This document shows, one piece after another, positions 29,015 through 49,747 of a stretch of DNA of 64,000 nt (the stretch's first letter is position 1; every line of letters begins with the position of its first letter). The DNA is from an uncultured candidatus Porisulfidus sp. (GTDB lineage: Bacteria; Pseudomonadota; Gammaproteobacteria; Poriferisulfidales; Oxydemutatoraceae), in the NCBI GenBank assembly GCA_965215125.1, contig OZ244052.1:1952001-2016000 (forward strand). Reading direction: 5' to 3'. The notes below the pieces were generated by a model. The model worked only from the letters and a program-made list of their open reading frames with translations, did no database searches and was not told where the DNA came from. The position numbers and the translations under genes were made by a program.

Positions 29015-29290
29015 AAAAGTATCTACGAACCGTAGGGGGTGGTTAATTCCCCTCCTGTGGAGGGGTGGCAGGCGAAGCCTGACGGGGTGGTTGTGTCGTG
29101 GGGCTGTTGAAAAAGTATCCACGAACCGTAGGGACGGTACATTCCCCTCCTTCGGAGGGGTGGCAGGCGAAGCCTGACGGGGTGGTTGTGTCGTATCTGC
29201 ACAATTTATACATCCATCCAATTTACGGAAGCCATTATTTGTCGGCGCAGGGCGGTTGGTGTTGTGCAGAACGGCACTTAAGGGCAAACA
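29004..29290. repeat. Composite repeat with two tandem ~97-bp units
   Basis: GGGCTGTTGAAAAAGTATC-x-ACGAACCGTAGGG at ~29005 and 29101, each followed by ATTCCCCTCC...GGAGGGGTGGCAGGCGAAGCCTGACGGGGTGGTTGTGTCGT. Confidence 0.9.
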
Positions 29291-29358
29291 GATATATTAA
29301 ACCTCGGCTTATTTGATATAAGATAAATGCTTAGGTAGATGCAGTGCCTAGGAGGACG
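29291..29358 (+). mobile_element. Truncated left end of the IS110 element (remnant of a second insertion)
   Basis: GATATATTAAACCTCGGCTTATTTGATATAAGATAAATGCTTAGGTAGATGCAGTGCCTAGGA is near-identical to 47578-47516 (minus) and is joined to AGGGCAAA-CA. Confidence 0.85.
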
Positions 29359-29364
29359 GTGCCG

Positions 29365-46097: not shown

Positions 46098-46245
46098 GGT
46101 CCATTCCCCTCCTATGGAGGGGTGGCAGGCTTCGCCTGACGGGGTGGTCGCAGAAGCTGGGCTGTTGAAAAAGTGCAGACATCGCACAAATCCAACCGCT
46201 TTGCGCCGTATAATTATCCAACCCACCTGTAGGGGCAGACTGATA
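46098..46245. repeat. Composite repeat, part flanking the IS110 right end
   Basis: CATTCCCCTCC module, GGGCTGTTGAAAA, and the half-hairpin GTAGGGGCAGACTGATA matching 5277-5340 in reverse. Confidence 0.85.
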
Positions 46246-46317
46246 TGATGCCTTATTAAAAGTCAAGTTATTTTATTCGTTTTTTATCTTTTTCTATCTC
46301 CTCTTCTGAGTATCAAT

Positions 46318-47304
46318 TTAGGACGCAGATACGCAACAATAATTCGGGTCAAACGGTTTCTTGTGCTTGAGTATTCCGTAAATGATACGCGTCAGTTTAT
46401 GGGCGCAAGCAACAATAACCTGCTTTTTGGTTAAATCCGGACGCCGCCGGCTTAACTGGTCGGCGAACGCACGGACGATTGGGTTATGAACCCGAGCCGA
46501 GAGTGCCGCCATAAATAGTGCGGTGCGCAGGTGTGCATCGCCAATTTTAGAGATGTGCGCCTTCGCCTCGTAGTTGCCGGATTGCTTGCGCATCGGAGTG
46601 ATGCCGATATAGGCGGCAAGTTGCTTTGGGTGTTGAAACGTATTATCATCAAAAGCTGCACATAGGGTGGCTGCGGTTTGAGTTCCGATTCCAGTAATAG
46701 AGCAGAGCAATTGATACTGCTGTGTGAGTTGTTCGTCTTCAGCGATGATTTCGTAAAGTAAGGCGTCACACTCATGGATTTGTTTCTGGAGGTGAGCGAG
46801 TTCTGCAGCTGCCTTCTTTTTGAGCTGCATACTGCGCAGCGTCTTTGCACAGTTGCTTAACTGCGTATGGGACTTGGTTAATTGCCGGCGCCATTTCAGT
46901 GTATCTCTCAAGGCGAATACTGCTTCGGTAGGCTGTTCCCAGTCTTGAATATCACCGACTGCAAATGCGAAGCGTGCGATGAGTTGCGCATCAACGCCAT
47001 CGGTTTTATTACGCATACCCAGCGTTTTGCGGTAGCTCGCGACCTGTACAGGTGGCACAATCGTGATGGGATGTTGGTCATAGCTTTCCATGCACAGGTC
47101 TAGCTCAAAACCGCCGGTTGCCTCAACGCAGAGGCGACACTGTTGCGCACCATGCTCGGTAGCCCAAGATAACAGTTGTTTGATGCCTTGGGCATCACTA
47201 CTAAATTGTTGCTCGGCAAAACTATTATCAGTGAATAATAGAGCCGCCTCTAAAGTGTCTTTAGAGACATCAACGCCAATCGTGACGGGTTGTTTGTTTT
47301 CCAT
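46318..47304 (-). CDS. IS110 DEDD recombinase (bridge recombinase type)
   Basis: GVDVSK, VEATG, KTDGVDA RuvC-like DEDD residues; SITGIG, G-x-x-P-x-x-x-QSG catalytic-Ser motif, ISKIG, A-x-AHKL. Confidence 0.95.
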   Translation of the reverse strand: MENKQPVTIGVDVSKDTLEAALLFTDNSFAEQQFSSDAQGIKQLLSWATEHGAQQCRLCVEATGGFELDLCMESYDQHPITIVPPVQVASYRKTLGMRNKTDGVDAQLIARFAFAVGDIQDWEQPTEAVFALRDTLKWRRQLTKSHTQLSNCAKTLRSMQLKKKAAAELAHLQKQIHECDALLYEIIAEDEQLTQQYQLLCSITGIGTQTAATLCAAFDDNTFQHPKQLAAYIGITPMRKQSGNYEAKAHISKIGDAHLRTALFMAALSARVHNPIVRAFADQLSRRRPDLTKKQVIVACAHKLTRIIYGILKHKKPFDPNYCCVSAS

Positions 47305-47344
47305 AATAAATTACTCCATAAGGGTTGGTTAATGAATGAAATAC

Positions 47345-47540
47345 TAGGTATCAAACACAGTTTAGGAAAGTATGACTACGCCGCCCAAACAGATGAATAC
47401 GAGATCTAAAGTCCCAAGCTGCCTTTCGAGCTCTATAGTCATAACGCCGGAGGAGTGCTTTTCATACCATCAGGCTTTAATGCCTCGTCCGTCCTGCAGC
47501 GTGTCTCCTCCGACTTCCTAGGCACTGCATCTACCTAAGC
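47345..47540 (-). ncRNA. Putative IS110 bridge RNA in the non-coding left end
   Basis: Two stem-internal-loop arms (47514-47446 and 47443-47371) carry sequences matching the target and donor junctions; the ends are estimated. Confidence 0.75.
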
Positions 47541-47570
47541 GTTTATCTTATATCAAATAAGCCAGGGTTT

Positions 47571-47576
47571 AATATA
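47571..47576 (-). promoter_or_regulatory. -10 box (TATATT) of a split promoter; the -35 TTGACT is at 46266-46261 in the other IS end
   Basis: Circularisation gives TTGACT-17 nt-TATATT. Confidence 0.8.
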
Positions 47577-47580
47577 TCTG

Positions 47581-47795
47581 TCCGCCCTAAAGTTCCGTTC
47601 TGCACAGCCGTAACCGCTTGCGCCGTATGGTTTTGGTTTCCATAAATTGGATGAATGAATGTATAAATCGTGCAGGCGCAACGCGTTACGGGCAGAATAG
47701 AGCCGCCGATTGAGCCGGTAGGTCAATCGGCAATTCAATTGAAGTCCGCCCCTACGGTGTATGAAATACTTTTTCAACAGCCCCAGCGTATCTGC
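47581..47795. repeat. Composite repeat, part flanking the IS110 left end
   Basis: Reverse complement of 5170-5274, then a CCGATTGA...TCAATCGG hairpin, GTCCGCCCCTAC and TTTTTCAACAGCCCC. Confidence 0.85.
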
Positions 47796-47890: not shown

Positions 47891-49747
47891 ATGAATGGTG
47901 ATTTACATAGTCTATCAAGAATAGTAAGTACATCAAATGGTTATCTGAGATTTAATCACAGCACCGGTAATCTGCAGACTAACGGCGGTAATTTTCTAAG
48001 CAGACTGGTAGTCTGGATACGTTTCAAAACCAGTTCGAGTTATAGAAGTTCAGTCTTAGATGCCAAGCGTCGGATTATGGAATCGATGTTATCCGATAGT
48101 GTCTACGGCGAAGACTTTCGTCAAAAAATAGAAGGCTTAGATAGAAGGCATGGATTTTTCTTCAACGATAAACCTCTGTCGGCAAGAAAAGTACGTCGCT
48201 TTATAAATGATGTAACGCAAGATGTGAATCAAGTACTTCATCGGGAAAGGTCCCAGGAGGAATTAAGCAAAGGTTTGGTTGATTGGGTATGCGGCAAAGG
48301 CAACACCATAGCGAGCGGTGAGACTTTCGAAGATAATCTACATGCGATGCTCGTCGAGAAACTGCAAGATGAACATGGTATCACAGCGGCGGATGTCGAT
48401 CTAAAGGGGATAGGTGACGAGATCCATCAAGCCTCCTTGAATGATCGAGAAGGGATGGCGACTGTCACCGACGGTGCGCAAGCTACCGTGCATGTAAGCA
48501 AGGCTATGTCTCGTATTTTGGAGGGGCGTATTGCCGATGCACGCTCGGTGAACCAAGCAAAATTATGCAGGCGGTTATCTGTTTCGGGCTTGTCCGAGAC
48601 GGAAATGGACACGGTAAATGCGGAGATTGCCGCATCTAAAATTACAACGATGGATGAATTAGACCAACATGTAAATCGCTTAATCATACTAAAAGTAGAC
48701 GAGGAATTTCCGCAATTACTTCAACGAGCACAAGCGGAACAAGATTTTAACGGCGAACTTGCGCAACTATCCGAGCTGAGGGCACAATTAAAAGAAGAGC
48801 TTACACGGCAGAGCGATCATCGGATGTTGTCGATGCAGGCTGCCCGCGACAAAGTCGGTCAATTATTAAATCGTTGGCTTGAAAACAAGCAACAAGCGAT
48901 CGCCGCAGCGCAAGAGAGTCGACACACAAGCATAGTCGATGTATTAACCAAACTTGCATTACAGGAACCTCGGGCGCGCAAAGAGCATATTCAATCTTTT
49001 AGACAAACGATAGAGCAGACCTTGGATGAGATTTACGAAAAAAACCGTTCCGATTATGAAGCACTCAATGTTGCTAAGGCAAAACTTTTCTCCATGTTAT
49101 ATAAATTTGATCGCCGAGAAGTATTATTGAAGCGTTTGCAGGATTTGGTTAAAGAGACGCAAACGGCAAGTTCTCTGTTTGAAGACGATATTCGGCAAGT
49201 TCCGGACATTAAAGGCGTGGCTAAAAGATATGTTGAATCGGTGAGTAAGCCCATGGTACGAAGCCACGCAAAGGTGTCGGCTTTAAGAGGAAGAATTCCG
49301 GATTATATTTTCCATACCATGCTGGAGAAAGTAAGCAAGGGTTATGTATGGGAACCGAGGTTTGTTTCTGCGGCAAACGGGATGCACATAGCCAACCTGA
49401 CTAAAAAGGAAAACGAAGGGCTTTATGCGTTATTGGACTCACCGCAAGTTGCGCGAAAAAGAATAGGTAGCAGGGAAGACTTCGTTAGTTTTAGCTTAGA
49501 CGATTTACTCAAATCGATGCTGGGTCCTAAAAACATAGATAATCACAAAAAAAGGAGACAAGCCATAGATCAAGTGGTGCCCGACGAAGTTAAAGTCAAA
49601 CTGTTGGATGAATTGGATCGTCAGTTGTTGATGGTACGGAGCAGGGTTATGGATGAAGAAGATGCGAATGCTTTATTTGAAAGAGGAACGGTTAGATTTT
49701 TACGCGCCCAAGACATTAATTTTGAAGCGATGACCGCAAAGGAATGA
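47891..49747 (+). CDS. Large helical hypothetical protein, paralogue 1 (candidate secreted effector)
   Basis: 618 aa with GGAGG RBS; shares N- and C-terminal blocks with the next two ORFs. Confidence 0.75.
   Translation: MNGDLHSLSRIVSTSNGYLRFNHSTGNLQTNGGNFLSRLVVWIRFKTSSSYRSSVLDAKRRIMESMLSDSVYGEDFRQKIEGLDRRHGFFFNDKPLSARKVRRFINDVTQDVNQVLHRERSQEELSKGLVDWVCGKGNTIASGETFEDNLHAMLVEKLQDEHGITAADVDLKGIGDEIHQASLNDREGMATVTDGAQATVHVSKAMSRILEGRIADARSVNQAKLCRRLSVSGLSETEMDTVNAEIAASKITTMDELDQHVNRLIILKVDEEFPQLLQRAQAEQDFNGELAQLSELRAQLKEELTRQSDHRMLSMQAARDKVGQLLNRWLENKQQAIAAAQESRHTSIVDVLTKLALQEPRARKEHIQSFRQTIEQTLDEIYEKNRSDYEALNVAKAKLFSMLYKFDRREVLLKRLQDLVKETQTASSLFEDDIRQVPDIKGVAKRYVESVSKPMVRSHAKVSALRGRIPDYIFHTMLEKVSKGYVWEPRFVSAANGMHIANLTKKENEGLYALLDSPQVARKRIGSREDFVSFSLDDLLKSMLGPKNIDNHKKRRQAIDQVVPDEVKVKLLDELDRQLLMVRSRVMDEEDANALFERGTVRFLRAQDINFEAMTAKE

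Follow-up and report, generated by a model that had tools for sequence, protein, structure and literature searches.

A candidate split sigma-70 promoter at the two ends of an IS621-like insertion sequence

The question raised by this locus is whether an insertion sequence carries the two halves of a promoter at its opposite ends, in such a way that the promoter would be complete only when the element has been excised and its ends have been joined in a circle. The locus lies in a stretch of 64,000 nucleotides, here called the window, from the genome of a member of an uncultured gammaproteobacterial genus (2.22 Mb in one contig, 46% G+C). A preliminary description of this DNA placed an outward-pointing TTGACT in the right end of the element and let the left end begin with GA-TATATT (47578-47571). 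Our reading of the minus strand agrees with both placements (Table 1). The answer which we favour is that the joined ends probably make a working junction promoter; this judgement is built on sequence comparison, and the arguments for and against it are given below.

Table 1. Features of the element and of its flanks, in window coordinates
Feature	Position	Strand	Basis or remark
Whole IS110-family insertion sequence, both CA copies included	46246-47580	minus	1335 nt (1333 with one core); other copies end identically
Left CA core copy (crossover dinucleotide)	47579-47580	minus	joint comparison
Right CA core copy	46246-46247	minus	joint comparison
Left half of target REP hairpin, AGGGCGGA before core	47581-47589	minus	
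Right half of target REP hairpin, TATCAGTCTGCCCC	46232-46245	minus	identical loop variant in unfilled paralogues
Recombinase gene, 328 aa	46318-47304	minus	intact frame; DEDD (D12, E61, D102, D105) and Ser242
-35 half, TTGACT (5/6 consensus)	46266-46261	minus	right end, pointing outward; followed by 13 nt, then CA
-10 half, TATATT (5/6 consensus)	47576-47571	minus	left end; preceded by GA at 47578-47577
A+T-rich stretch with A-tracts, 83% A+T over 24 nt	46267-46290	minus	directly 5' of -35; composition
Predicted transcription start	47564/47563	minus	7-8 nt past -10; first paired base of RNA 5' hairpin
Putative bridge RNA, ~200 nt	47365-47564	minus	two 5' hairpins and two stem-loops; predicted fold, 3' limit approximate
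Target-binding stem-loop of putative bridge RNA	~47514-47446	minus	fold
Donor-binding stem-loop of putative bridge RNA	~47443-47371	minus	fold
Left-target-guide-like segment GGACGGACG	47486-47494	minus	same sense as left flank GGGCGGA-CA; imperfect match
Right-target-guide segment ATGGTATGA	47462-47470	minus	complementary to TCA and right flank
Left-donor-guide-like segment AAAGGCAG	47419-47426	minus	same sense as right-end terminus AAGGCAT
Right-donor-guide segment TATTCATCTG	47390-47399	minus	complementary to core and start of left end

The element belongs to the IS110 family (IS110 group) and is IS621-like. Its recombinase scores 72.2 bits with PF01548 (cut-off 29), 89.4 bits in the C-terminal part with Transposase_20, PF02371 (cut-off 21.3), and 215.5 bits with the curated NCBI model NF033542, "IS110 family RNA-guided transposase" (cut-off 140). 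The structure of the IS621 transposase (8wt6) is matched across residues 8-321 with an E value of 1.1e-42, and in this alignment the DEDD residues and the serine of Table 1 all fall on identical residues of IS621; Ser242 lies within the motif RKQSGN and is aligned with the SG of IS621.

The limits of the element were found by comparison of the joints. CA is the sole sequence common to the joint between left flank and left end and the joint between right end and right flank. The genome contains 14 left ends and 9 right ends, and REP halves flank all of the left ends except two diverged solo ones and all of the right ends except one; these flanks read GGGCRGA-CA ... TGCNAGTCCGCCCC, or the TATCAGTCTGCCCC variant. 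Full copies all lie between REP halves with CA at both joints, the exception being a deleted copy (L052) that has a second insertion sequence on its right in place of the REP half. Unfilled paralogous copies of the 100-nt repeat unit consist of the left half, one CA and the right half, some of them with the exact loop variant of the window copy, and the genome has 44 sequences that resemble an empty site (at most 4 mismatches of 25). Terminal inverted repeats were not seen: among 12 inverted pairs within 46200-47640 none has its arms at both termini. The boundaries 46246 and 47580 are correct as outer limits which include both CA copies. According to the preliminary description the promoter gave independent support to these boundaries; the boundaries stand, but the promoter adds little to them, because the other copies and the empty sites already fix them.

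It should be noted that the genome also has a second, unrelated IS110-family element (at 550356, 934245, 1114717 and 1427468; 97-99% alike across ~1 kb). Its left end is short, and two of the copies have a further ~340 nt on the right-hand side, like IS1111-type elements; one copy directly adjoins the right end of the first element's deleted copy (1428680) and takes the place of the REP half. We considered this second element as an independent replicate and rejected it: its right end is common to just two of the four copies and its core is ambiguous.

When the ends of the window copy are joined through one CA, the best match that straddles the joint is TTGACT and TATATT separated by 17 nt, a match to the consensus of 10 out of 12. 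The match was found by a script which allowed spacings of 16-18 nt, required a -10 hexamer with A as its second and T as its sixth base, and read in the direction from right end to left end. The joined hexamers lie within the range of spacings used and read into the bridge RNA and the recombinase gene; the near-consensus promoter with a spacer of exactly 17 nt, and at the sequence level also its direction, are as they had been described. Matches of at least 10/12 are reached by 0.35% of 30,000 random joints from the same genome; among 30,000 shuffles of the ends the share is 2.1%. Matches of at least 9/12 occur in 2.8% of the random genome joints and 13% of the shuffles, in which both ends are A+T-rich. 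The hexamer match taken alone is uncommon, not decisive, and the TTGATT variants found in most of the relatives (9/12) are unremarkable without other evidence. Upstream of the -35 hexamer there is an A+T-rich stretch which is conserved among subfamilies and which is possibly UP-element-like. The start expected from the -10 hexamer falls on the base where the 5' hairpin of the RNA begins to pair, in agreement with the start near 47564 proposed earlier; both are predictions.

While integrated, the element has no equivalent complete promoter. The best -35 that the left flank offers in the 27 integrated copies compared has 2/6 matches in 19 copies, 3/6 in 5 and 4/6 in 3, and the best -10 that the right flank offers to the -35 half has 2-3/6 matches in the same 27 copies. 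A consensus promoter scan of the integrated sequence gave no site upstream of the RNA at the scan threshold. The sole match of the scan within the element, a weak promoter-like site at 47332-47303, was rejected: with a -10 that overlaps the start codon it is of no use to the gene. Next to the window copy, the upstream gene (47891-49747) runs on the opposite, plus strand, and read-through from it is therefore unavailable at the window copy. This adjoining frame of 618 amino acids matches no Pfam family at E ≤0.001.

The non-coding left end, 274 nt long, has the architecture of a bridge RNA, as it has been described for the IS110 family (PMC11208160). The fold of the single sequence and that of a nine-variant alignment agree on two small 5' hairpins followed by two long stem-loops with large internal loops. 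The fold energy is unremarkable (z -1.02; 27 of 200 shuffles fold at least equally well), and a compensatory change is seen in just 2 of 69 predicted pairs, because the aligned sequences are 90% alike. A search of Rfam matched no bridge-RNA family, and its sole match was to a microRNA model, below threshold and in the flank. The covariation of the guides gives stronger support for the RNA than the fold does. The guide segments were assigned by position, by eye and by analogy with IS621, and the counts are from 26 of the 27 copies, since the deleted L052 is without the segment. The right-target guide, 9 nt on the 3' side of the first internal loop, exists in five variants which track the right flanks; in 24 of 26 copies every one of its positions 2-9 is paired (Watson-Crick or G.T), and the other two copies have one mismatch each. 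The right-donor guide covaries with the second base past the core, CAGA with TCTG versus CAGG with CCTG, in all 26. The left-target segment differs between the three target classes, with an imperfect match to the flank. The left-donor segment is a candidate, placed by its position in the second internal loop alone.

Junction promoters are the usual case in the IS110 family, though not a universal one. In IS621 the bridge RNA starts at a sigma-70 promoter that is reconstituted across the core where right end meets left end, and small-RNA reads begin there; a donor trimmed to 22 bp loses the -35 box (Durrant et al., 2024; PMC11208160). A study of directionality shows that integrated IS621 is weakly expressed by read-through, and proposes that rare excision events restore the junction promoter and thereby raise the output of RNA and recombinase (Nature, 2026; PMC13626964). 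In ISPpu10 the cloned circle junction is a strong hybrid sigma-70 promoter, to which the right end contributes the -35 and the left end the -10, whereas the same source describes ISPpu9 as having its own internal transposase promoter and circle junctions that create no new promoter (PMC12288879). The preliminary description had called such promoters established for IS110/IS1111 circles; this holds for IS621 and ISPpu10, with ISPpu9 as the exception.

IS621 of Escherichia coli is among the closest known systems. Its recombinase has the same length of 328 amino acids and the same domains, with DEDD and serine aligned. Its core is a dinucleotide, its target is of the REP type, and its left end encodes an RNA composed of a 5' hairpin and of target and donor stem-loops; the -35 of its junction promoter likewise belongs to the right end, at a distance of more than 11 bp from the core, and the RNA begins just inside the left end (Durrant et al., 2024; PMC11208160). 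It differs in that its core is given as CT, where the present one is CA. The present element furthermore has a different REP family as target and belongs to an uncultured gammaproteobacterial genus, and the DNA of the two is too diverged for alignment. ISPpu10 of Pseudomonas putida KT2440 was compared by its description: it is of the IS110 family, lies in repeated intergenic sequences and has the same split of -35 and -10; the host and the sequence are different, and its promoter activity was measured whereas ours is predicted. ISPpu9, from the same strain, shares the family and a REP target, and the circular intermediates reported are those of ISPpu9; unlike it, the present element has clear split hexamers and is without an internal promoter upstream of the RNA at the scan threshold. 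Outside the IS110 group the circles of the IS3, IS21 and IS30 families are described as having a junction promoter, Pjunc, with -35 and -10 from opposite ends that is assembled on circularisation (PMC12288879), and ISEc11 (IS1111 family) is reported to have one too. IS3, IS21 and IS30, however, use DDE transposase chemistry, and in the IS1111 group the RNA lies downstream of the gene, whereas the promoter predicted here would fire directly into the guide RNA.

Conservation among copies was studied in 27 of 30 loci found, 7 in the source genome and 7, 10 and 3 in three others; a contig-end fragment (L040) and two copies interrupted by another insertion sequence (L062 and L064) were dropped, and seven further matches in one genome (G035) are outside this set. 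The joined ends of all 27 copies, from four species, read TTGA[C/T]T-17-TATATT. TTGA never varies, and with C or T at position 5 the hexamer is TTGACT in 5 copies and TTGATT in 22; TATATT is invariant in all 14 left ends of the source genome. The recombinases of the copies have 61-100% protein identity. Compared with the window copy, the genes of the other subfamilies have DNA identities from 78% down to 67.5%, and the non-coding left ends 83-99.6%, which suggests a strong constraint on this module or an exchange of it between lineages. The element family was found in 4/4 other species of the genus and in 0/48 other genomes of the order (E ≤1e-30, with this query); among named records, the closest come from a MAG labelled Candidatus Oxydemutatoraceae, which has three copies with a protein identity of 71%.

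Conservation alone cannot prove the promoter, because the -10 hexamer lies within the right-donor half-site that is paired by the donor guide of the RNA, and the conservation may reflect the needs of recombination and not a promoter function. On the -35 side the variable positions are three bases 5' of the hexamer and position 5 of the hexamer itself; past it they are one base of the spacer, the discriminator, and that spacer base which changes together with the donor guide. None of them is a key base of a hexamer, a pattern which agrees with a promoter without being specific to one, and over its last ~45 nt the right end is conserved as a block. As a decisive test of the promoter, conservation was rejected: the variable positions are too few and the ends double as recombination sites.

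The strongest alternative takes up this point. It holds that the hexamers are kept only as parts of a recombination site, as donor half-sites and contacts of the recombinase, and that they resemble a promoter by coincidence; read-through or weak internal starts would supply RNA and recombinase, in the circle as well. The overlap of TATATT with the segment paired by the donor guide is what one would expect on this hypothesis, as is a right end whose whole terminal part, beyond the -35, is conserved. Matches of 9-10/12 arise in 2-13% of shuffled A+T-rich ends, and there is precedent in the published accounts, where IS621 can excise by read-through transcription alone (PMC13626964) and ISPpu9 is described without a junction promoter (PMC12288879). 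The position of the -35 hexamer is at variance with it, however. It sits 13-18 nt from the core, beyond the 11 bp per side which are reported to suffice for the donor of IS621, and the spacing to the -10 is exactly 17 nt in 27/27 copies. Counting from the -10, transcription is predicted to start right at the 5' end of the RNA structure, the window copy has no co-directional upstream gene to read through from, and close functional relatives, as published, use exactly the same layout. We therefore consider it unlikely that recombination alone has kept the hexamers.

A direct trace of a circle was sought in several ways. The joined sequence of right and left end (at most 3 mismatches of 26) was found neither in the genome nor in the 65 retrieved loci. 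Of 17 public runs, none is recorded as RNA. Joints were also listed for the assembled contigs of 4 among them; none of the 15 joints listed out of 33 leads from ~47580 back to ~46248, and assembled contigs cannot show rare circles. One joint which skips 1333 nucleotides (46245 to 47579) occurs in two runs, with a shorter side of just 30 letters, and most likely represents paralogous unfilled REP sites and not an excision at this place. A scan of metagenomes with a degenerate right-end terminus gave 2 matches, both in unrelated sequence without the rest of the element, and these were dismissed as chance.

That the hexamers would form a promoter in an element which no longer excises, as the relic of an active ancestor, is highly improbable: the missing circle or tandem joint in the genome, the 65 loci and the listed contig joints would fit with it, as would the decayed copies and five solo left-end fragments of the genome and the two copies interrupted by another insertion sequence, but the recombinase has an unbroken frame and all five catalytic residues, the ends and the RNA are intact, four copies are 96-97% identical across ~1.36-1.39 kb, the window copy is a clean recent chimera of two subfamilies, and its right-target guide pairs with its own unusual flank.

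A working junction promoter at the joined ends remains the reading which we prefer, and the cycle it suggests can be outlined as follows. The element occupies the loop of a REP hairpin. In the chromosome the -35 and -10 halves, 1.3 kb apart, are each without a partner, and the element would be nearly silent. If excision by the recombinase through the CA core releases a circle, as it does in the relatives, the halves would be brought to a distance of 17 nt and would constitute a sigma-70 promoter. Transcription would then begin at the first base of the bridge RNA and, again by comparison with relatives, read on into the recombinase gene. A burst of bridge RNA and recombinase could allow the circle to insert into another REP site, whereby the promoter would be split again. 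The formation of the circle, the activity of the promoter, its start site and the read-through into the gene are all expected here by analogy with these relatives.

The window copy is itself a single-crossover chimera of two subfamilies, with the crossover at 47182-47176. Up to position 399 of the element 34 of 35 informative sites follow the subfamily of the copies at 603046 and 990907 of the genome; from position 405 on, 235 of 237 sites follow the subfamily of the copy at 452321. The first part consists of the left end and the first ~120 nt of the gene, and by this pattern the bridge-RNA module was imported from a lineage with a coding region that is 78% identical. The window copy sits in the unusual TATCA loop variant, and its imported right-target guide pairs with this variant, one of the pairs being G.T.

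Some other copies have histories of their own. Five solo left-end fragments are without a recombinase gene (window ~29289-29359 on the plus strand, and genome 521887, 670312, 1402567 and 1633293). The fragment at 521887 has 44 nt of the left end joined directly to a right REP half, as if by imprecise excision, and the remaining four break off at differing points. One full copy (L044) interrupts the left end of another, where an internal GGAGGAGA-CA resembles the normal target GGGAGGG-CA, and ~75 nt of the orphan left end remain upstream of it; this looks like a natural off-target insertion that hit the RNA gene of the element itself. In the second subfamily two copies, at genome 297992-300461 (L064) and 763828-766297 (L062), carry at the same point an insert of ~1.1 kb which encodes a transposase of 367 amino acids with HTH and rve integrase-core domains.

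The principle of the split promoter has, in the published accounts used here, already been demonstrated for IS621 and ISPpu10, and the present element is a further example of it; for this reason the split promoter found here answers no open question. What is gained is the annotation of a compact bridge-RNA system from an uncultured gammaproteobacterial genus, with ends, core, target, guide RNA, recombinase and predicted promoter, and with it a natural set of guide and target variants for a family which is now used in genome engineering. A more tentative idea, which we regard as possible but doubtful, is that in this genus the left-end module, i.e. the -10 half together with the bridge RNA, is a swappable cassette that works with several diverged modules of recombinase and right end. 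If this is true, the invariant split promoter would be the common connector, and natural swaps of modules would retarget the element.
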